Below are positions 1 through 51,544 of a stretch of DNA of 64,000 nucleotides, one piece after another. Within the stretch, counting starts at the first letter, position 1. Every line of letters starts with the position of its first letter. The notes under the pieces were generated by a model that saw only the letters and a program-made list of their open reading frames with translations, made no database searches and was not told where the DNA came from. Both the position numbers and the translations under genes were made by a program. This DNA comes from Candidatus Poribacteria bacterium (GTDB taxonomy: Bacteria > Poribacteria > WGA-4E > WGA-3G), in the NCBI GenBank assembly GCA_965198235.1, contig OZ240248.1, positions 4,448,001-4,512,000 of the forward strand. Direction: 5' to 3'.

Positions 1-67
1 CGGGGTGCGTTGGGGGATTATGAGTAGAATGGATTGGAAACTTTCGAGAGTTCCTCCTTTGAGACGT

Positions 68-290
68 TTTATTTCAGGATGTCAATAGGTTCTTTGCGTT
101 CTCTATTGGTATCTACCAGATACACTAATCTCTCCATTCCATTGTTTTCTTTTGAAGTTCAAGTGCTGTATATTGGTCACGATATTCCTTCAAACCACCG
201 ATCCAATCTAATTTAGGTTTCTTTTTTCGCTTTGGAACCTTTTCAGTTAGAAGGGCATCAATGAAATGGATTACTTCTTTATGATATTGT
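68..290 (-). pseudogene. Degraded vapBC-like pair: DUF2281-like antitoxin lacking its N-terminus, followed by a PIN toxin start remnant (MYLVDTN)
   Basis: Manual minus-strand translation gives ...KEVIHFIDALLTEKVPKRKKKPKLDWIGGLKEYRDQYTALELQKKTMEWRD* (stop 125-127), overlapping a GTG at 123-125 that reads VYLVDTN and then stops early. Confidence 0.6.
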
Positions 291-291
291 T

Positions 292-344
292 AGGGGCGTT
301 TTGGTCATCTTCAAGAGTATAGACTTTGAAGAGAAAACGCCCCT
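292..344. repeat. Short palindromic/MITE-like element
   Basis: aggggcgtttt...aaaacgcccct inverted ends with inner tcttcaa/ttgaaga arms; sits where the antitoxin N-terminus should be. Confidence 0.55.
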
Positions 345-403
345 TACACTATCACGATACATTATTCATCGTGTTTTTACGATGAAATGTTTAACAATGG
401 TTA

Positions 404-10907: not shown

Positions 10908-13595
10908 CTAAGATTCCTCCGCCTTCGCCTTCAAATCATAGAGAATATTCACCGCATCCAAAGGGGTTACCTGCGTGAGTTCCAACCGTCGGATCTCTTC
11001 GACGAGCGGATGCGTCTTCGGTGTAAAGAGCGCCATCTGTAGGGAATCGCTTTGCAGCGTCTTTCGGGAGACGCGGCGGCGCGGTTTCGGCAGTGTCGGA
11101 TGTGCTTTCGGTGGCTGACCCGTTGCCCCATCCGCTTCAACACTGAGATTGTGCTGTTCAAGCACCTCAAGTATCTGCTGCGCGCGTGTGATTACAACTT
11201 GGGGTAGTCCTGCGAGCCGTGCGACGTGGATACCGTAACTCTGGTCTGCGCCCCCGGGGACAACTTTTCGGAGAAAGGTTACTTTCTGTCCATCTTCATG
11301 AACGGCGACATTGTAGTTCTTGGCGCGTTTATATTTGCTGGCGAGTTCCACCAACTCGTGATAGTGCGTTGCGAAGAGCGTTTTCGCACCCATCCGCTTT
11401 TCATCTAAGAGATACTCCGAAACTGCCCATGCGATGCTGAGTCCATCAAACGTGCTGGTGCCGCGTCCAACTTCATCAAAGATAATAAGGCTGTTGCGGG
11501 TGGCATTGTTGAGGATATTCGCCGTCTCGTTCATCTCAACGAGGAAAGTGCTCTGCCCCATGACGAGGTTGTCCGACGCACCGACCCGTGTGAAAATTCG
11601 GTCTACCAAGCCGATCTTCGCAGCGGAGGCAGGCACAAAACATCCGATCTGTGCCATCAAAACGATGAGTGCCGTCTGACGCAGATAAGTACTCTTGCCA
11701 CTCATGTTCGGTCCCGTGATGATATGCAGTTGCTCATCGTCGCAGTTGAGTAGTGTATCGTTGGGCACAAACCCCTCTTGTGTGAACAATTGCTCGACGA
11801 CTGGATGTCTACCATCTCGGATAACGATTTCGTCCACCGCTGCTACGGTAGGCTTCACATAGTTGTATTTCGATGCGATATACGCGAAATTGGCAAGGAC
11901 ATCAATCATCGCGAGTGCTGCTGCGATCTTTTGAATAACTTCCGTATATTTCGACACATCATCGCGAATCTGACAGAAGAGTTCATACTCCAAGGTCTGT
12001 ATCCGATCCTCGGCGTTCAGGACCTTCGCCTCCTGCTCCTTGAGTTCAGGGGTAATGAACCGTTCGGAGTTCCGAAGCGTCTGTTTACGGATATAATGCT
12101 CAGGCACCATGTGCAGATTCGGCTTCGTCACGTCAATATAGTAACCGAAGACTTGGTTGAATCCGATTTTCAAGGATTGGATACCGCTGCGTTTGCGCTC
12201 CTCTTCCTGCATAGCGGCTATCCAGTCCTTTCCCTGCCCTACAATCTGCCGAAGTTCATCGAGTTCCTCACTATAACCGTCATTTACGATGCCGCCTTCA
12301 CGGATTGTCGCGGGTGGATTCGGATGGATGCCGTGTTCAATCAACGCAATTAAGTCTGGAAGTGGATCCAAAGTGTCATTGAGGGATACCAACAAGGCAC
12401 TACTGCAGTTTTGGAGCTGCGCTTTAACATCGGGAATCAGACGAAGGGAATCCTTGAGCGCATGCAGGTCGCGTCCGTTCACAGAACCGAGACTGATACG
12501 GGAAATGAGTCGCTCGACATCGTACATCTGTCCGAGTGCATCCCGCAACTCCTCCTGCAAGTTAATCTGGGTTTTGAGCTCATCGACCGCGCTGAGGCGT
12601 TCCTCAATCTCTTTTTCATCAAGCAGAGGCTGTAAGAGGCACTGACGCATCCTTCTGCCCCCCATCGCCGTCACCGTCTCATCAAGGACTTCAAGGAGTG
12701 TGCCTTTCGTGGAACCGTCACGAATGGCGGCTGTCAGTTCAAGGTTGCGCTGCGTATCGGCATCCAGCACCATGAAATCCGAGAGCGTATAGGTGTGAAG
12801 CGAAACGATATGTTCGACTTCCTGTTTCTGCGTTTCGTTTAGGTAATAGATGAGCGCGCCCGCGGCAGAGATAGCAGTCGGAAGGTGTTCGCACCCGAAT
12901 CCGTCCAGCGAAATCGTTTGGAAATGTTGGAGGAGCTCCGTCCGCGCTGTATCCAATTCAAATCGCCAGTCGGGTAGGTCATTGAGCGTCACTTTGAGTT
13001 CCGTTTTGAGACGATCAAACATCTCTTCATCCTCGAAAGTGTCGGCAAAGAGGCACTCTTTCGGGGAAAAACGGTGGATATCCGCCCAGAGACGTGAAGG
13101 ATCTGTGAGTTCGGTTACCAGAAATTCGCCTGTGGAGAGATCGGCAACAGCGACACCGTAAGTGTCTTTGTTGAGATAAATCGAGATGATGTAGTTGTTC
13201 ACCTTATGCTCCAGCACCTTTGGATCGGTCACCGTGCCGGGTGTAACGATCCGGACGACATCGCGTTTGACGAGTCGATTTTCATCTCGTGCGAGTTTTG
13301 CGTCCTCGGTCTGCTCCAAAATGGCGACTTTATGTCCGGCTTTGACGAGTTTGTAGAGATAGGAGTCGAGTGCGTGGTGAGGGATACCTGCCATCGGTGG
13401 CGGCGGGTTTTTCTGGTTTTTATGACTTCTCGCTGTCAAGGCGATCTCAAGCAGGCGGGCAATGAGTTCGGCATCTTCAAAGAAGGCTTCATAGAAATCG
13501 CCGACTCGACACAGCAGTATGGCATCTCCGTGCTGTTTTTTTACGTGTTTATAAAGCTCCATTAATGACAGATCCGACTGTTTTGAACGTGCCAT
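10908..13595 (-). CDS. mutS: DNA mismatch repair protein MutS
   Basis: GDFYEAF, TGPNMSGKSTYLRQ, STFLVEM, DEVGRGTST, FATHYHEL, SYGIHVA. Confidence 0.97.
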   Translation of the reverse strand: MARSKQSDLSLMELYKHVKKQHGDAILLCRVGDFYEAFFEDAELIARLLEIALTARSHKNQKNPPPPMAGIPHHALDSYLYKLVKAGHKVAILEQTEDAKLARDENRLVKRDVVRIVTPGTVTDPKVLEHKVNNYIISIYLNKDTYGVAVADLSTGEFLVTELTDPSRLWADIHRFSPKECLFADTFEDEEMFDRLKTELKVTLNDLPDWRFELDTARTELLQHFQTISLDGFGCEHLPTAISAAGALIYYLNETQKQEVEHIVSLHTYTLSDFMVLDADTQRNLELTAAIRDGSTKGTLLEVLDETVTAMGGRRMRQCLLQPLLDEKEIEERLSAVDELKTQINLQEELRDALGQMYDVERLISRISLGSVNGRDLHALKDSLRLIPDVKAQLQNCSSALLVSLNDTLDPLPDLIALIEHGIHPNPPATIREGGIVNDGYSEELDELRQIVGQGKDWIAAMQEEERKRSGIQSLKIGFNQVFGYYIDVTKPNLHMVPEHYIRKQTLRNSERFITPELKEQEAKVLNAEDRIQTLEYELFCQIRDDVSKYTEVIQKIAAALAMIDVLANFAYIASKYNYVKPTVAAVDEIVIRDGRHPVVEQLFTQEGFVPNDTLLNCDDEQLHIITGPNMSGKSTYLRQTALIVLMAQIGCFVPASAAKIGLVDRIFTRVGASDNLVMGQSTFLVEMNETANILNNATRNSLIIFDEVGRGTSTFDGLSIAWAVSEYLLDEKRMGAKTLFATHYHELVELASKYKRAKNYNVAVHEDGQKVTFLRKVVPGGADQSYGIHVARLAGLPQVVITRAQQILEVLEQHNLSVEADGATGQPPKAHPTLPKPRRRVSRKTLQSDSLQMALFTPKTHPLVEEIRRLELTQVTPLDAVNILYDLKAKAEES

Positions 13596-34470: not shown

Positions 34471-36501
<2,031 letters not shown>

Positions 36502-39483: not shown

Positions 39484-40929
39484 ATGAGAAAGATAAAAAG
39501 ACCTGAAACATCAGAAACGCCCAAACATACAAATGTCGAAATTTCGGTTAAGAACTTCGGTCCGATTGCAGATGCTACAATAAATCTTCATCCGTTGACA
39601 GTGTTTGTAGGTCCGAGCAACACAGGGAAAACTTATTTTTCCACGCTTATCTATGCGTTGCACGGGGTTTTTACCGGATTCTTAAAATTCCCAGGACGAT
39701 TTAAACACTTAGGCCTCCACGGTTTCAAGGACTTGGTAGATCGAAATTGGAACGAGATTCGTTCGATTCTCAAAAAACTAAACACATCTGATCAATCATT
39801 TCAGTTTTCTGATTTGCCCCAGGAAATTCGTGAGAGTTTAGAGTCAGACCTCAAGAATCCGGAAAGCATAGCGAATGAACTCAAGCGCTGCTTTGATTTA
39901 AATTCAATTACAGAATTGATTCGTTTAAAAAACGGTCAACGCAGTGAAATGAACATCTCTCTGGAAGTCAGGAGGGAAAATCAGAGTCTATGGGATTTCG
40001 ATATAGAAAGCGACGAATCAAACTTTGCGGTATGTGGTTCAGTTAACAAAGATTTAGTACTTTACAACAAAGAGTCATTAATCTCAAACGGGGCACTCGA
40101 TATTGATGATTTATTCTTCTGGGCCTCTACTGAATTAGAGAAATATGCAGAAAACAGAACCTACTTACCGGCCGCCCGAAGTGGGATTATGCAGAGTCAC
40201 CGAGTGATTGCAAGCTCACTGGTCGAACGTGCGACTCGCGGAGGTCTCACCCCTCTAGAAGTTCCAACATTCTCAGGGATTGTCGCAGATTTTATGCAGC
40301 AACTCATACTCTACAAAGAATCCGAAGCACCTGACGAAGGAATGAAACACCTTGCCGAAGCCATAGAATCCGATATACTCGCAGGTCAGATACTCATGAA
40401 ACCTACACCAAGTGGATATCCGGAATTTCTTTACCGCCCGCGCGTAATGGGGGAAGAAGTCCGTCTCACACGTGCAGCGTCTATGGTGTCTGAACTTGCT
40501 CCTGTTGTGCTGTTTCTCCGCGGTGGGATTCGCCCTGGCAATACGCTTATTATCGAGGAACCGGAGGCGCATCTGCACCCCGGTGCACAAACTGATATAG
40601 CATTAACCCTTGCCGGCTTAGTCCGTGCTGGTGTTCGTGTGGTTGTGACAACACACAGCGACTGGTTGCTGAAAGAAATCGCGAATCTGATTCGGATAGG
40701 AGATCTGAAAAGAAAAGGTGTGCCACAAGTGAAAAAGATGGAATCAATATACTGGCTGCTACCAGAAGACGTAGGAACATGGTGGTTTCAAAAGGACGGG
40801 ATAGTGAAACATATTCCCTTTGACCCCACTGAGGGCATAGAACCGAAAGATTACGAAGATGTGGCTTATAAACTCTATGACCAGTCGGTTAACCTCCAAG
40901 ACCTACTTGAGAAAGTCAACAGGGAGTAG
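39484..40929 (+). CDS. AAA_15/AAA_21 ABC-type ATPase
   Basis: KNFGPI, GPSNTGKT, YLPAARSG, IIEEPEAHLHP, TTHSD. Confidence 0.9.
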   Translation: MRKIKRPETSETPKHTNVEISVKNFGPIADATINLHPLTVFVGPSNTGKTYFSTLIYALHGVFTGFLKFPGRFKHLGLHGFKDLVDRNWNEIRSILKKLNTSDQSFQFSDLPQEIRESLESDLKNPESIANELKRCFDLNSITELIRLKNGQRSEMNISLEVRRENQSLWDFDIESDESNFAVCGSVNKDLVLYNKESLISNGALDIDDLFFWASTELEKYAENRTYLPAARSGIMQSHRVIASSLVERATRGGLTPLEVPTFSGIVADFMQQLILYKESEAPDEGMKHLAEAIESDILAGQILMKPTPSGYPEFLYRPRVMGEEVRLTRAASMVSELAPVVLFLRGGIRPGNTLIIEEPEAHLHPGAQTDIALTLAGLVRAGVRVVVTTHSDWLLKEIANLIRIGDLKRKGVPQVKKMESIYWLLPEDVGTWWFQKDGIVKHIPFDPTEGIEPKDYEDVAYKLYDQSVNLQDLLEKVNRE

Positions 40930-40935
40930 CAGCGA

Positions 40936-41451
40936 GTGGGATTCAAAGAGCTTCTTACAGAAATCGGGAAGCAGGTAAATGAAGAATGCCTTAGCAAATC
41001 CTGTAGCGGAGATGGATGTCGTGTATATCTAACTGGTACCCCCTCTGACCGAGTTATCGTAAATCTTGAATGTGAGTTTAAACAGCGTAAAATAGACGCA
41101 AAACGATGTGATTATGTCCTCTTCTGTGGGGATGCCTCTCAAAATAATTTGGTTGTTGTTCTCATAGAACTCAAAAGCGGTACTTTTAAAACAACAGCAG
41201 TGACCGACCAACTACAAAGAGGTGCTAACTTCGTCACAGAAATGTTTGAAAAATTGCCTGAGGAGGCAAACGCGGCACTAAGCACACTCGAAATTACATG
41301 CGTTCCTGCTCTGTTTCATGGTAAACGCATCGACAGATTTGAACTCCGCGAACTCGAACGTGCTAAAATCCGCTTCCTTAGTCAGAACCCAACAATTAAG
41401 AGACGTAAATGTGGCGAACCAAAGAATCTTGCCTTAGTTTTGAGAGGATAA
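40936..41451 (+). CDS. Hypothetical protein, possible PD-(D/E)xK fold
   Basis: RCDYV...IELKSG...QL; starts 6 bp after the ATPase. Confidence 0.65.
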   Translation: MGFKELLTEIGKQVNEECLSKSCSGDGCRVYLTGTPSDRVIVNLECEFKQRKIDAKRCDYVLFCGDASQNNLVVVLIELKSGTFKTTAVTDQLQRGANFVTEMFEKLPEEANAALSTLEITCVPALFHGKRIDRFELRELERAKIRFLSQNPTIKRRKCGEPKNLALVLRG

Positions 41452-41557: not shown

Positions 41558-42358
41558 ATGACTGACGAAGAAAAATTTCGATTTGACTTGAGTGGATTCC
41601 TCGTCCGTCCCGCGATCCTTGAACGCGACGAAGTAGCCGCAATTGTTGAACAAATTGAACGGATACATCACGAACCAGAGTCTTTACCGCCAGAACACCG
41701 CGCCGTTCCCGGTGGTCCTGCGAGTGTCCTGATCGACCACCCCAAAGTGCTCGATGTCTTGCACGAAATCATCGGACCCGATGTCCGGTTAGAGAACTGT
41801 TCCTCCGTCTGGCGTGAAAAGGGGCAGGAACACGGTGGACTCCACGGCGGCGGACCGCAACAAGGCGATCCGATCTTCGGGTACCGCTTCAATAATGGAC
41901 GCATTCACGCAGGGATGGTGCGCGTCGTCTTTGAACTCACAGATGTCACCAAAAAGGATGGTGCGACACACTTCATAGCGGGCAGTCATAAGTCTAACTT
42001 CCCGATGCATCCGGATCACATGTCGTTAGAGGACGGGGAACGGAGTCCGTTCCTGATGTCGTATGAATGTCCAGCAGGCAGTGCGATCTTCTTTACCGAG
42101 AACCTGTGTCATGCAGGTCCCGTGTGGCAACGGGAGGCACCCCGCGTCGCAGTGCTAAACGCCTACGCACATCTCGCGACCCACTGGCATCGGTTAAAGA
42201 CTCCCCCTGAAGTAATCTCCGCGCTACCGCGTGACAAGCAGGCATATTTCCGTGAACCGTGGGTCGCTGATTTCCGCACAAGCCCGGCAACGATTAATAC
42301 GATCGAACGGTTTTTGAACAACGACGAACCGCCTGTCAATACCGATACCAAGCCGTGA
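41558..42358 (+). CDS. PhyH-family oxygenase (HxG variant)
   Basis: FDLSGFL, LHGGG, DGATHFIAGSHK, LCHAG. Confidence 0.85.
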   Translation: MTDEEKFRFDLSGFLVRPAILERDEVAAIVEQIERIHHEPESLPPEHRAVPGGPASVLIDHPKVLDVLHEIIGPDVRLENCSSVWREKGQEHGGLHGGGPQQGDPIFGYRFNNGRIHAGMVRVVFELTDVTKKDGATHFIAGSHKSNFPMHPDHMSLEDGERSPFLMSYECPAGSAIFFTENLCHAGPVWQREAPRVAVLNAYAHLATHWHRLKTPPEVISALPRDKQAYFREPWVADFRTSPATINTIERFLNNDEPPVNTDTKP

Positions 42359-42828: not shown

Positions 42829-45800
42829 ATGAACATTCTTCATGAATTAAATGAAAGACAGAGAGAAGCCGTAACACATAAAAATGGTCCACTCCTCGTT
42901 ATTGCAGGTCCCGGTACAGGGAAAACAAGAGTCATCACACATCGCATCGCGTATCTGATTCGCGAACACGGCATCAAGGCGGAGAAGATCCTTGCGATCA
43001 CGTTTACCAATAAAGCTGCGCAAGAGATGCAGGAACGCGTCAACAGCGAGATCGGCGAACCGCACGGTTCCAACATTAAAGTCAGCACCTTCCACGCGTT
43101 TTGCGTTCAAGTGCTCCGAAAGCACGCTCTGCGGATCGGATTAAGCGAAAACTTCACTATCTTCGATCAGGAACTCCAAGACGAGATTCTAACAGAGAGC
43201 GTTCGAGCGTTGAACCTCAACGCCGATGACTATCCGCCATGGTTGCTGCGTAATATTCTGAGCGATGCCAAATGTAAATCACAGGATCCCGTCGACGCAG
43301 TGGATGCCACGGATATTTATGACCCAGAAACTGCCGAAAACATCCGAAGTGTCCTACGAAATTACAAGGACAGACTCGCGGAATACGATGCGCTCGATTT
43401 CGACGACCTCCTTGTGAAGACCGTCGAGTTGTTTGAACAGGTGGAAGACGTACAAAAAGACTACCACAAAGCATTCACTCACATCCTCGTTGACGAATTC
43501 CACGATGTGAACAGCGTGCAGTATCACTTACTCCAACTGCTCTGTGCGCCACCCGAACACAACCTCATGGTCGTCGCTGACGAAGATCAGGCTATCTACA
43601 GTTGGCGCGGCTCGAATCCAGCGTATATTGATGGTTTCAAAGCCGATTACAGTCCGAGAGAACTTGCTTTGGACGACCACTATCGGTGTAGCGAGAAGAT
43701 TTTGCGCGCCGCAGAGGAAGTCATCTCCAGAAACACGGAACGGCAGAAACAGCACACCCTCAGAACCCATAAAGACGCGGGACGCGACATCTTTCACTAT
43801 ACCTTTGACACACCTATAGCGGAAGCACGCGGCATTATTAATGTCATTCAGAACTTAGTAACGAAACGCAACTATTCCTACCGCGATATTGCCATTTTTT
43901 ACCGTACACACAGACTCGCTGACGTTTTGGAAGAACAACTGCTACGGGAACATATCCAATTCCAGCGAATCCAACCGATTCACTCCTTTGCGGAAGGGAA
44001 TAGTAAGGGTATCCTGGCGTATCTCCGTTTCATCCAGTGGCAGCTCCCGCAAGACCTGGAACACGCAATCAATTTTCCTGAAACTTGCATCGACGACCTA
44101 ACATGGGTGCGCCTGAAGTGGCTCGCACAACGTAAAGATATAGCATTTGTGGAACTTTTGAAAAATATCGAAGCATATCCAGAGGATGTCGGTCCCTTAA
44201 CACGCCGCAATGTTCGTCAATTCTGGAAACAACTTGAGAGTTTATCGACTGAAATTGAAGGCGAGAGGGTCGATAAAATTATCCCGAAACTCTTCGATAC
44301 TCTGGAACGCTCTCGGACTCCCTATCGCGCTGAAGAACTGGAAATCATCGAAAAACAACCTGAGATGCCGAATTTGGTAACAGCACAAGACGTTCTCTAC
44401 AGCGCGCTGAATCTCGGTGAGCCGGTCCAGATTACCGCCAGCCACGGGATTGACGAGTACTGTGCGGCGCATATTATCTACCAGACGCTTGAAACCTACC
44501 TAAATCACACTGCAGAACTCCAATTGTTGCCGCCTGAGGGAAACAGACTTAAATCGAACGAAAACGGGGTCCATCTGCTTATCGGCAATTTTGAGGAAAT
44601 CGGAGAAAGTGCGCGGGATGCCCGGACAATCCTCATCGGCACAGCGGACGTAGCAAATACGGACGTGCTTCGCCTGGAAGCAGAAGGGGTTCATAGCATC
44701 ACGGCACTCAAACTCTGCCAACGGCTTGTCAATCGTTTTGAAACTCCAAACATGGCAGACATGGTCGTCTACGATTTGGAAACCACCGGGCTCAATCCGA
44801 AAACGGCAGAAATCGTTGAGATCGCGGCGCACCGTCTCAGCGCAATCGGAGATAAAGTTGAGCGGTATTATCGCTTAGTCAGGCCCCCAGGGGGACACAT
44901 CCCAGAGTCAGCCACGCGCATTCATGGAATTGATGCAGAAACAGTCAAACCCGCACCGGGAATCGAAATGGTGTTGCCTGAATTCCTTGGGTTTATCCAA
45001 GACCGGATTCTGATTGGACACAATGTAGCGGAGTATGACAATCCAATCCTTGCCCGAGACCTTAGAAGGTATTTGAAAAGGGATTTATCGGTGCCCCATT
45101 ACGATACACTCGCCACGGCGCGCAGGCTCTTCCCACGACAACGGTGTAGTATGAGTGCGCTTGCCGAAAAATTTGAGATTGAACACGGTCGTCTACACAG
45201 TGCCATAGAGGACGTCAGAGTCAATCGAGAGATCTTTAAAGAACTCATCAAAATCGATTCTCACAAACGTGAGGCGAAATCGCTCCCTGAATTGCTACCG
45301 TTTGTTGGGCTCGGCATCCTTGCGAAAACCGAAGGGGTCGCTCCTCCAGAGGAAGCCTTAACCGAGACGGATACGTTCTTAAATGTCGCGAAACGTTTCG
45401 TCCAGACACACAACGTCGGACCGCTGGAGAATCTACCACTTGATCCCACAGAAGCGGCACAGGCGAGAGAACATATTGAAACGTTACAGGATGCGACCGT
45501 CCGTGAGTTCCCAGAAGATGCTGACTGGCGACAACGCCGGATTCAGTTCATGAACGCGGTACTCCACTTTGAATCAATCAGTGATGCACATGGACTTATC
45601 GACTTCTTGGATTATCAGAAACTGCTCACCAATATTGACGAACTCGACGATAAGACTGAGCAACTGACGTTAATGACGTTACACGCAGCGAAAGGGACAG
45701 AATTTCCGGTCATTATCATCATCGGTATGGAGGAGGGAAGTTTCCCGATGTGGAGGCAGAACATCACAGAAGCAGAACTTGAAGAGGAGCGCCGTCTTTT

Positions 45801-45948
45801 CTATGTGGGTATGACACGAGCACAAGCGCAGCTTTATCTGAGTTCGGTCGTATATCGTTTTGGAGACAGGGATCGTGCGGTGTCCATGTTTGTCCGGGAG
45901 GTCCCATCTAATTACGTTGTCAGATGGAGTTCACAGCATAGGACCTAG
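42829..45948 (+). CDS. UvrD/PcrA-like SF1 helicase with inserted degenerate DHH and DEDDh exonuclease domains
   Basis: AGPGTGKT, TFTNKAA, VDEFHD, QAIYSWRG, TLHAAKGTEF, EERRLFYVGMTRA; YDLETTG, GHNVAEYD, HSAIED. Confidence 0.9.
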   Translation: MNILHELNERQREAVTHKNGPLLVIAGPGTGKTRVITHRIAYLIREHGIKAEKILAITFTNKAAQEMQERVNSEIGEPHGSNIKVSTFHAFCVQVLRKHALRIGLSENFTIFDQELQDEILTESVRALNLNADDYPPWLLRNILSDAKCKSQDPVDAVDATDIYDPETAENIRSVLRNYKDRLAEYDALDFDDLLVKTVELFEQVEDVQKDYHKAFTHILVDEFHDVNSVQYHLLQLLCAPPEHNLMVVADEDQAIYSWRGSNPAYIDGFKADYSPRELALDDHYRCSEKILRAAEEVISRNTERQKQHTLRTHKDAGRDIFHYTFDTPIAEARGIINVIQNLVTKRNYSYRDIAIFYRTHRLADVLEEQLLREHIQFQRIQPIHSFAEGNSKGILAYLRFIQWQLPQDLEHAINFPETCIDDLTWVRLKWLAQRKDIAFVELLKNIEAYPEDVGPLTRRNVRQFWKQLESLSTEIEGERVDKIIPKLFDTLERSRTPYRAEELEIIEKQPEMPNLVTAQDVLYSALNLGEPVQITASHGIDEYCAAHIIYQTLETYLNHTAELQLLPPEGNRLKSNENGVHLLIGNFEEIGESARDARTILIGTADVANTDVLRLEAEGVHSITALKLCQRLVNRFETPNMADMVVYDLETTGLNPKTAEIVEIAAHRLSAIGDKVERYYRLVRPPGGHIPESATRIHGIDAETVKPAPGIEMVLPEFLGFIQDRILIGHNVAEYDNPILARDLRRYLKRDLSVPHYDTLATARRLFPRQRCSMSALAEKFEIEHGRLHSAIEDVRVNREIFKELIKIDSHKREAKSLPELLPFVGLGILAKTEGVAPPEEALTETDTFLNVAKRFVQTHNVGPLENLPLDPTEAAQAREHIETLQDATVREFPEDADWRQRRIQFMNAVLHFESISDAHGLIDFLDYQKLLTNIDELDDKTEQLTLMTLHAAKGTEFPVIIIIGMEEGSFPMWRQNITEAELEEERRLFYVGMTRAQAQLYLSSVVYRFGDRDRAVSMFVREVPSNYVVRWSSQHRT

Positions 45949-47355: not shown

Positions 47356-48324
47356 ATGCGAATTGATTGTCAGAGCCACATATTTCCAAACGCCTATACC
47401 GAAATCCTCGCGCAGAACCCACATCCTCCGCAAGTTGTCCGCTGCGGGAGCGAGGCTGTCGTTACGTACGGCGATGTCCAAACATTTCGCCTTCAAGACG
47501 AAGCCTACGACCCGGAGCGAAAACTCAAGGATATGGACGAAGCGGCGGTCGATATGGCACTGCTCAGTACCAATATACCCCCGCCATGCATGCTCGCACC
47601 TGAATTAGGGAATAAGGGTGCACAAGCGATCAACGATGCCATTGCCGAGCTCGTGGACGCATATCCACATCGATTCGCAGGATTGGCATGCCTACCGTGG
47701 CAAAATCCAGATGAAGCCATCACAGAAATGGATCGGGTGAAGGGACTCGGGTTCCGAGGGATAATGCTCTATTCCCATATCGGAGGAAAACCGGTCGACG
47801 CACCGCACTTTGAACCGGTTTATGCCCATGCCGAAACACTAAGTATGCCGATTGTGATGCATCCCACCGTCCCGACGTGGGGAGAGGCAATCAAAGACCA
47901 CTGGATGATCGGTATGATGGGGTTACAAGTGGATAACAGTTTCGCACTGTTGCGACTGATTCTGAGCGGGATTCTCGAACGGCATCCACACCTCCAAATC
48001 GTGATGCCGCACGTCGGGGGTATTTTACCCTATATGAGCGGCAGGATCGATCATCAGACGGAAGTATTAGGGAGAGCCAGAGAGAACATAACACAACCGC
48101 CGAGCGCGTATCTGCGACGTATCTATTTGGACACTGTCTCGCCATCAGTGCAGGCACTACAGTACGCCTACGAGTATTCTGGCGCGGACCGCTTGTTATT
48201 CGGGACAGACCATCCGTGGGTGGATATGCCACGATTCGTCCGTTTAATTGAAGAGATGCCGATCCCTGAAGCAGATAAAGCACGAATCTTTAGTGAAAAC
48301 GCCATAAAATTGTTCAATTTATAG
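47356..48324 (+). CDS. Amidohydrolase_2 (ACMSD-like) protein
   Basis: IDCQSH, MHP, HVGG, LFGTDHP. Confidence 0.9.
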   Translation: MRIDCQSHIFPNAYTEILAQNPHPPQVVRCGSEAVVTYGDVQTFRLQDEAYDPERKLKDMDEAAVDMALLSTNIPPPCMLAPELGNKGAQAINDAIAELVDAYPHRFAGLACLPWQNPDEAITEMDRVKGLGFRGIMLYSHIGGKPVDAPHFEPVYAHAETLSMPIVMHPTVPTWGEAIKDHWMIGMMGLQVDNSFALLRLILSGILERHPHLQIVMPHVGGILPYMSGRIDHQTEVLGRARENITQPPSAYLRRIYLDTVSPSVQALQYAYEYSGADRLLFGTDHPWVDMPRFVRLIEEMPIPEADKARIFSENAIKLFNL

Positions 48325-48399
48325 TAAAATATGAGAGATTGAGAAACGAGATCCTTGAAAATGGATGAGGTAGATGCGAAAGAAAAGAGGGTTTATGAC

Positions 48400-49203
48400 A
48401 TGCCACACAAACTGACGAATGCTGAAAAGTTTTTCTTTGAAAACAATGGTTATCTCGTTTTGGATAATTTCCTTGCCCCCTCACACGTTGAAACGCTCAG
48501 AAGTGCCCTCGCCGAATCTATTGAAAAGCGACGGGAACGTGAGGAAAAGGGGTTGCCCCAAACCGGAATGACGCACATCCACGGCGAGAAAAGTGCCCGT
48601 ATCTTCTATATCCTCGGGGACCATCCGGCGTTCTTGGAACTCTTGGATTGGCAACCAATCCTTCCGTATGTCATGGGGTTGCTCAACAAAATGCCGCACC
48701 ATCACGCTTCGGACGCTATTGTCGAGCGCGCTTCGGATTTAATGGAACGTTCAATGGGTTGGCACATTGATGGACACGATGAAGGCTATCGTAACCTACG
48801 TCCGATTCCATTTTTGCAACTCAAAATCGGCTATTATCTGACGGATATGACAGAAGGCGGACAGGGCAATTTATGGCTCATACCGGGTAGCCACACGGCA
48901 ACGTATGATCCGAACCACGAAGACCTGCGGTACCCTTATGAATATCCCGGTGCCTTGGAGGTCTGCGCTCCGCCAGGGAGTGCGATTCTGTTCCACAACG
49001 CGGTCTGGCATTCATCTGGTATCTTTACCAAACCGGAAGGTTGCCGTGAAATGCTCTATTACGCCTATGAGCATCCGTGGATGATTGCCTCGCAGGAACA
49101 TTGGGGATATCCCAAAGACTTTTACAACAAGGAACTTTCACCGGAACAGCGGAAATTCTTCCACGGATTTGTTTTCGATCCACCAGAACAGCGATGGGGA
49201 TAG
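48400..49203 (+). CDS. PhyH-family dioxygenase
   Basis: ENNGYL, WHID, LIPGSH, VWH. Confidence 0.88.
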   Translation: MPHKLTNAEKFFFENNGYLVLDNFLAPSHVETLRSALAESIEKRREREEKGLPQTGMTHIHGEKSARIFYILGDHPAFLELLDWQPILPYVMGLLNKMPHHHASDAIVERASDLMERSMGWHIDGHDEGYRNLRPIPFLQLKIGYYLTDMTEGGQGNLWLIPGSHTATYDPNHEDLRYPYEYPGALEVCAPPGSAILFHNAVWHSSGIFTKPEGCREMLYYAYEHPWMIASQEHWGYPKDFYNKELSPEQRKFFHGFVFDPPEQRWG

Positions 49204-49301
49204 TGCAGGGAAACCTGCAAGCCACGCCCTACAACACAACTCGGAGGTCACGCGATCACTATCATCGTGATGGCGTGCCTCCGTGCAAGGAGGACGCAAT
49301 T

Positions 49302-50180
49302 ATGCGTTTAACCGAATCTCAAGTTTCCTTCTTTCACGACAACGGATATCTACTGCTTGAAGACGCGCTTGATGAGAACGATCTGGGTCCTGTCATTGAC
49401 GAATATAAGGGAATTATCGCGGAACGTGCAGAGAAATTGCACGCGGAAGGAAAAGTAACGGATACGCACGCCGATAAGTCCTTCACGGAACGGTTGCTCC
49501 ACCTCTCGAAGGAGGCACCGGAGATAACAGCGAACTTAGACATTATGCAGGCACGCGGCGAAGCGACGTTCAACTTCCTCAAGAACCCGAAAATCCTCGA
49601 CATCACGGAGTCTTTTGTTGGTTCCGAAATCATCTGCAATCCGATTCAACATATCCGTGCCGTCCTGCCAAAACGGAGTTCACAGCGCGAACCGACACCT
49701 TGGCACCAGGACGCAGGGGTGTGCTGGCCCGACACCGATCCTTATTTTATGCTAACTGTTTGGGTTCCCATTGTAGATGCGACGCTGGAAAACGGATGCC
49801 TACAAGTAATGCCGGGTAGCCATAAGATGGGACTCTACACACACGACTGGTCATCGGCTGGATTGGCGGTCCCGCCGGAACATCAACCCGATAATCTTAC
49901 ACCGAAACCGTTGCCGATCCGGGCTGGCGGCGTTATTCTGTTTCACAACTACACGCTCCATAGTGCGAAACCGAATGAATCGCAGAGCATCCGATGGAGC
50001 TTCGATCTGCGGTATCACGATGTCTATCAACCGACAGGGAGACCCTTTTATCCTGGATTCCTCATGCGGAGTCGTCTGCGACCGGAAGCCGGTAACACTA
50101 AATATGAAACGTGGTGTCGACGGTGGGAATTTGCGTTAGAGAATTCTAAAGGTGCGCAAGCCTACCGATGGCCCCGGTAG
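49302..50180 (+). CDS. PhyH-family dioxygenase
   Basis: WHQD, ENGCLQVMPGSH, LH...N.S..IRWSFDLRY; AAGGAGG RBS. Confidence 0.9.
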   Translation: MRLTESQVSFFHDNGYLLLEDALDENDLGPVIDEYKGIIAERAEKLHAEGKVTDTHADKSFTERLLHLSKEAPEITANLDIMQARGEATFNFLKNPKILDITESFVGSEIICNPIQHIRAVLPKRSSQREPTPWHQDAGVCWPDTDPYFMLTVWVPIVDATLENGCLQVMPGSHKMGLYTHDWSSAGLAVPPEHQPDNLTPKPLPIRAGGVILFHNYTLHSAKPNESQSIRWSFDLRYHDVYQPTGRPFYPGFLMRSRLRPEAGNTKYETWCRRWEFALENSKGAQAYRWPR

Positions 50181-50647: not shown

Positions 50648-51544
50648 CTACGAATCAAAAGGACGGAACCCGCGCAACATCAAACCTCGATCACTATTAG
50701 ATTTCTTCGCTTCCTCGGCTGCGGTGGCGCGTTTCTCTGACTCTGCCCGATTCGCTGTCGTTGTCCCGCCGATAATCACATAGTCATCTGTTCGGCGGTA
50801 GCGGTTGATGAAAATCGGACGCGGTTTGTCCGACATATTCTGTTTGGACCCGTGAATCGTTTTGACGTTAAAGAAGATTGAATCACCAGCTTCACCAGAA
50901 ATAGGGAGAGCACTCTCCCAGGGCCACTCGTCCTCCTCCAAACCGAGATGTGAGAACGTATCAATATGCTTGAGTTGTCCAAGTTTGTGTGAACCCGGCA
51001 CGACGTGTAACGCTCCATTTACCAAGTCCGTATCCACAACATAACTCAGAATGCCGACGGGTCCCTGATAGCGGTGTTCAAAGTAGGCAGAATCCTGATG
51101 TAGATGCTTCGGATGTCCACCGACCGGTTCCTTATACAGGCACTGTCCGCTACCAAAGATCTCCACATTCGGTCCCAAGATCGCCTCCACGATATTGGCT
51201 GTGGTTTCATCGAAAGCGGATTGGAAAAATGCTCCACTCGTCTGATAATTCACCGCCAACACCATAATCTGTTTGTCGCGTTCGTAGCCTGACGGTGCGG
51301 GGATGAACAGCGTGCCGTTCGGCGTACGCCATCCTTCAACGATCTGTTCTGCCTCGTCCAGTAGCGATAGGGATTCTGCAGCGGCAGCCTCAATGTCCTC
51401 ATGGATCGCCTTAATATAAGGTGCCATCAGCCCGCGGACGACGAGACAGCCGTGTTCCTCAAAGATGTCTGTGGCTTTTTGGGCATCTAACGCATCCATG
51501 GACATCTCAATATCTTCAACTGTTACCTTAGGTTCTTGGTTCAC
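50648..51544 (-). CDS. PhyH-family dioxygenase
   Basis: LHQD, NGALHVVPGSH, IHGS..N. Confidence 0.9.
   Translation of the reverse strand: MNQEPKVTVEDIEMSMDALDAQKATDIFEEHGCLVVRGLMAPYIKAIHEDIEAAAAESLSLLDEAEQIVEGWRTPNGTLFIPAPSGYERDKQIMVLAVNYQTSGAFFQSAFDETTANIVEAILGPNVEIFGSGQCLYKEPVGGHPKHLHQDSAYFEHRYQGPVGILSYVVDTDLVNGALHVVPGSHKLGQLKHIDTFSHLGLEEDEWPWESALPISGEAGDSIFFNVKTIHGSKQNMSDKPRPIFINRYRRTDDYVIIGGTTTANRAESEKRATAAEEAKKSNSDRGLMLRGFRPFDS

Follow-up and report, generated by a model that had tools for sequence, protein, structure and literature searches.

A UvrD/PcrA-type helicase paralogue of Poribacteria carrying a DnaQ-type exonuclease within a degenerate RecJ-type domain

Domain organization of the helicase paralogue

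Poribacteria are a bacterial phylum associated with sponges. In the genome of one Candidatus Poribacteria bacterium (assembly GCA_965198235.1), a stretch of 64,000 nucleotides of contig OZ240248.1 (positions 4,448,001 to 4,512,000 of the forward strand), referred to here as the window, contains a gene at window positions 42829..45948 on the + strand, stop codon included, whose open reading frame (ORF), translation, Pfam and NCBIfam matches and full-length AlphaFold model together describe a 1039-residue helicase paralogue of the UvrD/PcrA type (superfamily 1A, SF1A) with a large nested insert. The anatomy can be stated with high confidence: this is an extra UvrD/PcrA paralogue whose 2B domain is interrupted by a module derived from RecJ, within which an exonuclease of the DnaQ type was already nested. 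Almost certainly, too, the module comprises only the DHH half of RecJ, with neither the DHHA1 nor the OB domain, and has lost the metal ligands of the DHH active site, leaving the “DEDDh” residues of the exonuclease and the motifs of the helicase intact. Close relatives, all from Candidatus Poribacteria, are labeled “UvrD-helicase domain-containing protein” or “hypothetical protein” in the databases.

Helicase sequence occupies both ends of the protein. Alignment to PcrA assigns residues 1-500 (42829..44328, + strand) to domains 1A and 1B, the first half of 2A and the first part of 2B, and residues 890-1039 (45496..45945, + strand) to the remainder of 2B and the second half of 2A, with a UvrD_C_2 match at residues 947-1004. 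The Pfam model UvrD-helicase (PF00580) matches residues 7-274 (284.7 bits against a cut-off of 23) and UvrD_C (PF13361) is split over residues 281-1006 (154.7 bits against 25.6), both placing the protein among the UvrD/PcrA/Rep helicases of SF1A. The Walker A motif (GPGTGKT, 27-33), motif II (DEFHD, 222-226) and motif III (DEDQAIYSWRG, 251-261, including Q254) precede the insert; motifs V (TLHAAKGTEF) and VI (VGMTRA), together with R989/R997, lie within the resumed helicase sequence. In a sample of 49 diverse full-length relatives, whose identity to the query is 26-67%, no substitution occurs at G31, K32, T33 or D222 and hardly any at E223, Q254 and R286; overall, Walker A, motif II, Q254 and R989/R997 are invariant or retained in at least 90% of these relatives and align to their counterparts in PcrA. 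The full-length model has a mean predicted local distance difference test (pLDDT) score of 90.3 and a predicted template modeling (pTM) score of 0.87, and therefore suggests a defined arrangement of the domains.

The location of the insert can be specified closely from solved homologues. Residues 8-489 of PcrA (1pjr) align with residues 3-490 of the query (E 3.6e-80 for that stretch) and residues 513-646 with 905-1030 (E 1.4e-24), so that 414 residues (491-904) occupy the place of about 23 in PcrA. Alignment to mycobacterial UvrD1 reaches somewhat farther, to residue 516 of the query and 533 of UvrD1. The 2B domain of Mycobacterium smegmatis UvrD1 spans amino acids 404-585 (PMC13646824), although numbering in the solved chain may differ slightly. 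Because the alignment ends at residue 533, within that span, the insert lies inside 2B.

The level of motif conservation in the motor does not extend to the features of its best known relatives. Orthologues of PcrA, UvrD and Rep are defined by the motif GIG within 2B and by an extension at the C terminus. Here, the GIG position reads CID, the motif is kept in none of the 49 relatives (0/49), and the protein ends about 9 residues past the equivalent of PcrA residue 646 (the PcrA 646-654 region), with no C-terminal extension. All three NCBIfam equivalog models score below their cut-offs, the nearest being PcrA (TIGR01073, 530.1 against 911.2), with UvrD (TIGR01075) at 384.8 against 1144.45 and Rep (TIGR01074) at 396.8 against 951.45. 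The genome contains four UvrD-family loci, one of which encodes a 743-residue protein that has RGIG and extends farther at its C terminus; on these sequence features, the 743-residue protein is taken as the canonical PcrA/UvrD and the 1039-residue gene as an extra paralogue.

Within the insert, residues 646-811 (44764..45261, + strand) form an intact DEDDh 3'-5' exonuclease domain similar to DnaQ and RNase T, identified by family model, by fold and by catalytic residues. The RNase_T model (PF00929) matches residues 646-803 (101.2 bits against a cut-off of 24), and the catalytic residues D649, E651, D737, H790 and D795, which align with the DxE, D and Hx4D elements of the Escherichia coli epsilon subunit (1j53), are each retained in at least 90% of the 49 relatives. 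The closest solved relative in sequence is the exonuclease of PolC (2p1j, E 2.1e-27), with epsilon more distant (1j53, E 6.8e-12); in fold, 1j53_A superposes with a Z score of 24.3 and a root mean square deviation (rmsd) of 1.4 over 163 aligned residues. Neither equivalog for the epsilon subunit of DNA polymerase III is reached (TIGR01406, 83.6 against 222.7; TIGR00573, 71.2 against 71.5).

The more difficult question is the identity of the sequence on either side of this exonuclease, residues 501-645 (44329..44763, + strand) and 812-889 (45262..45495, + strand), which are assigned here as the two halves of a degenerate DHH domain of the RecJ type, the former from an AlphaFold model of the insert, structural alignment and hhalign, the latter from hhalign comparison with the corresponding part of RecJ proteins described below. 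The insert (residues 491-904) was modeled with AlphaFold2 without a template from an alignment of 55 rows, giving a mean pLDDT of 93.9 and a pTM of 0.91. In the model, the N-terminal half runs from a helix through a strand (VQITA), a second helix and further strands to the helix ITALKLCQRLVNRFET, and the C-terminal half carries LPELLPFVGLGILAK, the counterpart of motif IV of RecJ (LVALGTIAD), with K833 in place of the aspartate. In the predicted structure, the two halves combine into a DHH fold of the RecJ type, a fold characterized by a parallel sheet flanked by helices. An exhaustive search with VIA-align against 48,161 representative chains of the PDB, from which the best 50 rows were listed, is led by exonucleases aligned to model residues ~150-325 (Z 24.3 to ~17). 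RecJ comes next: Thermus thermophilus RecJ (1ir6_A) aligns with Z 16.9 and rmsd 2.7 over 178 residues (model 16..399, chain 49..259), 2zxo_A, likewise RecJ, has the same Z of 16.9, and Staphylococcus aureus RecJ (8y30_A) follows with Z 15.3 over 187 residues (model 11..387). Nine of the 50 rows are members of the DHH family, among them 5ghr_A (Z 14.8), titled “DNA replication protein” and presumably the archaeal GAN, RecJ2 (7ykv_A, Z 14.2), RecJ-Cdc45 (7bhi_A, Z 13.8), a DHH domain protein (5yh1_A, Z 13.0), CDC45 (6cc2_A, Z 12.7) and DhhP (9r7o_A, Z 12.6). These RecJ and DHH alignments bridge the exonuclease and use the flanks on both sides of it. Only one other fold that is not an exonuclease occurs in the 50 rows, that of the SIS domain, represented by 2i22_A (124 aligned) and 1x92_A, both with Z 13.0 and both confined to model residues 21-150.

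Comparison of the flanks with RecJ motif by motif reveals how little of the DHH active site is left. In the register given by hhalign, motif I (GDRDVDG) is aligned with ASHGIDE, motif II (ITVDCGI) with LLIGNFE and motif IV (LGTIAD) with LGILAK, so that the positions of the metal ligands read G-I-D in motif I, G586 in motif II and K833 in motif IV, with no DHH triad. Across the 49 relatives, the first aspartate of motif I (position 540) is found in 6/49 and the second (542) in 32/49; position 586 is glycine in 30/49 and aspartate in 9/49; position 833 is aspartate in 3/49; and the triad of motif III occurs in 0/49, its position being a variable loop. Because the ligands are gone, the DHH-like domain is regarded as a scaffold. 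It is also truncated relative to RecJ. Neither DHHA1 (PF02272) nor the RecJ OB domain (PF17768) matches the helicase in Pfam at E up to 1, the hhalign and VIA-align matches go no farther than the DHH domain, reaching at most residues 259-313 of the RecJ chain, and the gap between the DHH-like part and the resumed helicase is only about 15 residues long.

Much of this anatomy had been proposed in an earlier note made from the letters of the window, which described a UvrD helicase containing a dead RecJ-DHH domain that in turn holds a DnaQ exonuclease. Pfam, the AlphaFold model with VIA-align, and hhalign bear out that description. The peptides that it quoted all occur where it placed them: MPNLVTAQDV... 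at residue 513 (nucleotide 44365), SITALKLCQRL at 621-631, YDLETTG at 648-654, HNVAEYD at 731-737, HSAIED at 790-795 and LPELLPFVGLGILA from residue 819 (nucleotide 45283). Its pairing of RecJ motifs by eye is reproduced by hhalign in all three of the motifs given above; the exonuclease that it judged intact is so by both family model and catalytic residues; the loss of metal ligands that it noted extends through the family, in which the DHH triad is absent and the other ligands are mostly replaced; and the lack of DHH-fold similarity in residues ~510-640 that it named as evidence to the contrary was not what the structural search returned, RecJ being matched there, in an alignment that takes in both flanks, with Z 16.9.

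RecJ proteins with a nested exonuclease and the probable source of the module

Sequences related to the insert offer a view of how such an architecture may have been assembled. A search of representative sequences with the insert gave 19,999 matches at E ≤ 0.001, and the best 150 of these, together with the query, were sorted using local phmmer probes. Both helicase halves are present in 58, the C-terminal half only in 19 fragments and the N-terminal half only in 6; nine are RecJ proteins, and the remaining class, “other,” has 56 members. Judged from these sequences, the family is broad, with 58 full-length representatives at 50% identity among the best 150 of the 19,999 matches.

The RecJ proteins are of particular interest for the origin of the insert. 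In six of them, the order of the Pfam domains is DHH, RNase_T, DHHA1 and RecJ_OB, with positions 1 to ~104 of the 125-position DHH profile (PF01368, 58.9-100.5 bits) preceding the exonuclease. Their DHH motifs are those of a live enzyme, running GDRDVDG, ITVDCGI, DVIITDHHEP and the GVxFKL helix, followed by the exonuclease and then by LVALGTIAD, and the point in the DHH fold at which the exonuclease is inserted is the same as in the helicase. Such proteins, designated here RecJ::DnaQ, are not confined to a few sequences: among the 120 relatives listed in a search with a profile of the nine RecJ proteins, 75, counted by eye, carry both PF01368 and PF00929. The named carriers belong to Elusimicrobiota (including Endomicrobiia) and to Brevinematales/Brevinematia, where they are annotated simply as RecJ (“single-stranded-DNA-specific exonuclease RecJ”).

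Profile comparison links the two families on both sides of the exonuclease independently. With hhalign, the N-terminal flank (49 rows, residues 505-642) matches the N-terminal part of the RecJ::DnaQ proteins with a probability of 94.1% (P 1.2e-7, 123 columns), and the C-terminal flank (residues 812-904) matches the part that follows the exonuclease with 93.4% (P 2.6e-7, 44 columns). The whole insert aligns collinearly over 338 columns (100%, E 3.4e-64). Ten controls, which used reversed targets, swapped flanks, and pieces of helicase and exonuclease, gave probabilities of 0.1-13.7% and P of at least 0.002, with maxima of 0.4% for the N-terminal and 13.7% for the C-terminal flank.

The direction of transfer was probably from RecJ::DnaQ to the helicase, for it is the RecJ proteins that have the complete form with its catalytic motifs intact, the helicase having a partial and degenerate one. 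The earlier note had proposed that a helicase captured a RecJ::DnaQ module. Nine RecJ proteins with RNase_T nested at the same point now lend direct support to such a module; the direction of its capture is read from live as opposed to dead motifs. Since RecJ with a nested exonuclease survives as a living intermediate, a stepwise path becomes visible, in which insertion of one enzyme into another was followed by capture of half of the composite protein and then by loss of one of its active sites. The outcome is nesting at three levels, an exonuclease within a DHH domain within the 2B domain of a helicase.

Other variants on this theme are present among the sequences examined. Ten RecJ proteins of 695-738 residues (P0378, P0396, P0402, P0404-P0406 and P0410-P0413) have no recorded PF00929 and are ~40% identical to P0201 over 97-100% of its length; these may have a degenerate or replaced insert. 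Three proteins of ~615 residues (P0156, P0157 and P0270) combine two tandem RNase_T domains with a C-terminal BRCT domain and form a tight clade in an exonuclease tree (support 99). P0269, a helicase of the RecD2 type (superfamily 1B, SF1B) of 947 residues with an N-terminal RNase_T domain, is a fusion of helicase and DEDDh exonuclease of a different build.

Distribution in Poribacteria and possible modes of action

A survey of the architecture across the phylum, suggested by the earlier note, covered 101 Poribacteria genomes including that of the window, with a threshold of E ≤ 1e-10 for the insert. The insert is present in 93/101 genomes, in 88/96 of those of higher quality and in 14/17 genera, and the gene is mostly single-copy. 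A few genomes of one genus have two copies: in G018 (C28:55879-60563) and G032 (C1:5359872-5364546), the second lies in tandem on the same contig, at most 3.4 kb away, and in G083 it is on another contig; the copies differ, with 46-51% as compared with 50-51% identity to the query insert. Outside Poribacteria, the sole named organism found in a related-locus search with P0147 is represented by a metagenome-assembled genome of Anaerolineae, whose protein is 45% identical over residues 4-1029. In Chloroflexota, 118 matches in 151 genomes (G246 unpublished) are nearly all limited to the exonuclease core; only those in G101, G103, G116 and G113 extend into the flanks.

The genome of the window (5.17 Mb in 2 contigs, 96.3% complete) has PF00929 in this gene only, and a profile built from 138 exonuclease domains picks out this ORF alone from 31,322 six-frame ORFs. 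In the phylum as a whole, PF00929 occurs in the same 93/101 genomes as the insert, in frames of helicase size (820-1141 residues) with the exception of a single 253-residue frame (G006); the other eight have neither the helicase nor PF00929, and four of these are single-contig genomes that are 94-96% complete. The phylum thus seems, by sequence, to be without a separate dnaQ, ExoI, ExoX, RNase T or Orn gene. This near-absence of DnaQ-type domains outside the helicase raises the question of how proofreading is accomplished, perhaps by the PHP domain of DnaE. Also recognized in the genome are a second DHH protein and the repair genes RecJ, MutS (two loci, one of them in the window), MutL and ExoVII.

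What reaction this combination of domains performs, for which the earlier note raised repair or resection as a possibility, may be approached from the general properties of its parts. Motors of SF1A such as PcrA, UvrD and Rep move 3'-5' on the strand on which they load, and DEDDh enzymes need a free 3' end. There is an even prospect, as we infer from these properties and the intact motifs, that the protein is a 3'-5' strand-excision enzyme whose nuclease is fed by its motor. After loading at a nick, a gap or a 3' tail of single-stranded DNA, the motor would move 3' to 5', so that the strand already passed over would leave it 3' end first; the tethered exonuclease would degrade that strand as it was fed out. 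The result would be ATP-driven, processive removal of a 3'-ended strand from nicks, gaps or ends, resembling what is achieved by the motor and nuclease of RecB/AddA, or by UvrD with ExoI or ExoX in mismatch repair, but in one chain. Domain 2B is described as one that autoinhibits unwinding, governs dimerization and serves as a handle for activation by partners (PMC13646824). The bulky insert and the lost GIG would probably remove or alter the autoinhibitory contact between 2B and duplex, with the cargo in 2B replacing the usual autoinhibition. Taken as a whole, anatomy and motor-fed mechanism together are modestly favored as the best explanation of the gene, in line with its wide, housekeeping-like spread in the phylum and with the presence of MutS, MutL, ExoVII and RecJ in a genome that has no DnaQ/ExoI/ExoX-type domain elsewhere.

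A further elaboration is put forward only tentatively. The dead DHH domain may keep the groove by which RecJ binds single strands and may guide the 3' end from the exit of the helicase to the exonuclease, making the protein a self-contained, ATP-fed 3'-5' strand degrader, a one-chain analogue of RecBCD/AddAB or of UvrD plus ExoI, and the principal 3'-5' single-stranded DNA exonuclease of a phylum that would otherwise have dispensed with the DnaQ/ExoI/ExoX/RNase T family altogether. If this is true, Poribacteria would rely on this helicase-exonuclease both for excision in mismatch repair and for the processing of 3' ends.

Several observations weigh against the reading of the gene as a motor-fed exonuclease carried on a RecJ-derived scaffold. 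Foldseek comparison of the insert with the PDB returns exonuclease matches only, and the Pfam DHH model (PF01368) is not reported for the helicase at E up to 1. BLASTP with each flank alone against 150 representatives gives no significant match to RecJ (best E 0.01-0.85), the best relevant one being P0255 (E 0.85) in the correct register. Phylogeny of the exonucleases neither supports nor excludes an origin from RecJ. In the free tree (quick IQ-TREE, LG+G4, 138 rows, 171 columns), 79/80 exonucleases of helicases lie on one side of a split with a support of 19, and those nested in RecJ are scattered. A first approximately unbiased (AU) test rejected a clade of helicase and RecJ exonucleases (p 0.00028), its log-likelihood (lnL) being lower by 201.5, but counted four fragments of uncertain context (P0126, P0143, P0226 and P0221) as “others,” two of which lie deep in the helicase clade; with these four removed, the constrained tree exceeds the free quick tree by 48 lnL (p-AU 0.828), and a control that joined the helicases to an unrelated clade of 10 rows is not rejected either (p-AU 0.671, +20 lnL), so that the tree has no power here. 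With respect to mechanism, 2B domains normally lie close to the duplex in front of the motor, a position that would favor a different substrate. Finally, no conserved repair partner is found among 48 neighboring ORFs in 12 genomes, the neighbors being variable.

The position of 2B leads directly to the main rival of the motor-fed reading, an arrangement like that of WRN, which has a minority but appreciable chance of being correct. Labor would be divided: the motor would open forks, D-loops, flaps or DNA covered by protein, and the exonuclease, kept at the junction by 2B, would trim a recessed or frayed 3' end (that of a nascent strand, an invading strand or a mismatched primer) instead of the strand being tracked. 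When PcrA or UvrD is bound as a monomer, 2B, which houses the module here, contacts the duplex at the junction (PMC13646824), and fusions of a helicase with a DEDD exonuclease are known, including WRN and, among the fold matches, DinG of Gram-positive bacteria (8zef, 9ii8). The contact between 2B and duplex is mediated by GIG, however, and because this motif is kept in 0/49 family members, a location of the insert at the junction does not necessarily follow. A different objection, directed at the anatomy itself, treats the flanks as a generic spacer, Rossmann-like or SIS-like, whose resemblance to DHH is convergent. The two phosphoheptose isomerases 2i22_A (Z 13.0, 124 aligned) and 1x92_A (Z 13.0) do match the N-terminal flank, and both the lack of a Pfam DHH match and the lack of significance in flank-only BLAST are as this explanation would have them. 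It is nevertheless quite implausible, as the SIS matches are limited to model residues 21-150, RecJ scores higher and includes the C-terminal flank, each flank independently matches its RecJ::DnaQ counterpart at P ~1e-7 with clean controls, and the two families share the position of the exonuclease within the fold.

Two further proposals assign the protein to other cellular processes. One, which is very improbable, is that it is an anti-phage helicase-nuclease, Gabija-like or a new single-protein system, that degrades invading DNA. Among PADLOC models, those for GajB match the helicase core (best 337.8 bits) and one for a CRISPR-associated DEDDh protein matches the exonuclease, and a pair of genes similar to PD-T4-4 lies 1.4 kb upstream. 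But the GajB models are generic for UvrD-like proteins, and PcrA scores higher (530 bits). GajB is found next to GajA, a nuclease combining ATPase and TOPRIM domains, and no GajA is adjacent here: the closest ATPase gene (39484-40929) has PD-T4-4_A as its best match and is set apart from the helicase by a PhyH gene. The gene is, moreover, present mostly as one copy in 93/101 genomes of the phylum, unlike patchy defense genes, its neighbors vary, and the PD-T4-4-like pair is absent beside it in 12 other genomes. That the nested exonuclease stands in for a missing epsilon subunit of DNA polymerase III, supplying proofreading or the editing of primer ends, is suggested by the restriction of PF00929 in the genome to this gene and of all matches in the phylum but one to helicase-sized frames (93/101 genomes), yet this too is highly unlikely. 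Because eight of the 101 genomes, four of them single-contig and 94-96% complete, have neither helicase nor PF00929, replication in the phylum does not need a DnaQ-type domain; the score against the dnaQ equivalog is 83.6, far from the cut-off of 222.7; and because the exonuclease domain is internal, there is no C-terminal polymerase-binding tail of the kind found in epsilon.

Relation to known systems and genomic context

Chains that join a helicase to a nuclease are already known, as in RecB, AddA, WRN and DinG of Gram-positive bacteria, as is an exonuclease nested within another domain, as in PolC. PcrA, UvrD and Rep (1pjr, 3pjr, 2is1, 9dci) share with the protein described here the same motor, with domains 1A, 1B, 2A and 2B and all of the helicase motifs; they differ from it in that here 2B carries a 414-residue insert, GIG is lost, the C-terminal extension is missing, scores fall below the equivalog cut-offs, and a canonical 743-residue paralogue exists alongside. 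The C-terminal extension of PcrA/UvrD is described as a Tudor-type domain that binds RNA polymerase or Ku (PMC13646824, PMC8318588). The RecJ::DnaQ proteins of Elusimicrobiota and Brevinematia have the same two-level module, with the DEDDh domain after the GVxFKL helix and before motif IV, but retain the metal ligands, DHHA1 and OB domains missing from the helicase copy; only in the helicase is the module itself nested in another protein.

Systems that resemble the proposed enzyme in activity are built along other lines. In RecBCD and AddAB, the nuclease of RecB/AddA acts on the 3'-ended strand as it leaves a UvrD-like 3'-5' motor. RecB and AddA (1w36, 3u44), which give weak sequence matches to the motor, thus likewise join such a motor to a nuclease, but theirs is an endonuclease of the PD-(D/E)xK type, attached at the C terminus by a linker, in a multi-subunit assembly, whereas here a DEDDh domain is nested in 2B and no partner genes are nearby. 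WRN and DinG of Gram-positive bacteria (8zef, 9ii8; the exonuclease of DinG is a fold match with Z 22.8) have a helicase and a DnaQ-superfamily exonuclease in one chain; their motors, however, belong to superfamily 2 (RecQ or XPD type) rather than SF1A, and the exonuclease is separate and N-terminal, not nested and with no DHH scaffold. In PolC, the closest solved relative in sequence (2p1j, E 2.1e-27), a DEDDh exonuclease is also located inside another nuclease-type domain, but the host domain is PHP rather than DHH, and PolC is a polymerase. In the literature covered, from which most subscription journals were absent, no description was found of a UvrD-family helicase with an internal DEDDh domain, of RecJ with a nested exonuclease, of a dead DHH scaffold or of descent from RecJ::DnaQ.

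Several broader issues are raised by these comparisons. A 2B domain loaded with some 400 residues of catalytic cargo constitutes a natural experiment on the control of unwinding by 2B. As nearly the sole DnaQ-superfamily exonuclease of the phylum in the genomes searched, the protein makes any role that it has in repair directly open to test, and it poses the question of how 3' ends are proofread and recycled in these organisms.

The immediate surroundings of the gene can be described briefly. It is apparently monocistronic, with a gap of 470 bp upstream and a convergent gene downstream, and a scan for promoters and terminators gave counts at the level of chance. Upstream, an ATPase of the AAA_15 type (481 residues, 39484-40929, + strand) has PD-T4-4_A as its best PADLOC match (E 2.5e-34) and is followed after 7 bp by an ORF of 171 residues (40936-41451, + strand) that matches PDC-M47B (E 1.4e-6) and PD-T4-4_B (E 8.5e-4); the two, 1.4 kb upstream of the helicase, are probably a two-gene anti-phage system.

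Two genes of DNA metabolism occur farther away in the window. Adjacent pcrA and ligA genes are found in some bacteria; here, LigA, an NAD-dependent DNA ligase with its full domain set (34477-36501, + strand), shares the strand of the helicase but lies 6.3 kb upstream, with four unrelated genes between them. A MutS match (PF00488, E 6.4e-87) at ~11157-11723 on the - strand, within a 923-residue frame, is ~31 kb upstream and not adjacent. Close to the helicase are genes of the PhyH family (phytanoyl-CoA dioxygenase-like) at 41558-42358, 48355-49203, 49077-50180 (+ strand) and 50648-51544 (- strand), two of whose ORFs overlap by 127 bp as called, and an amidohydrolase at 47356-48324.

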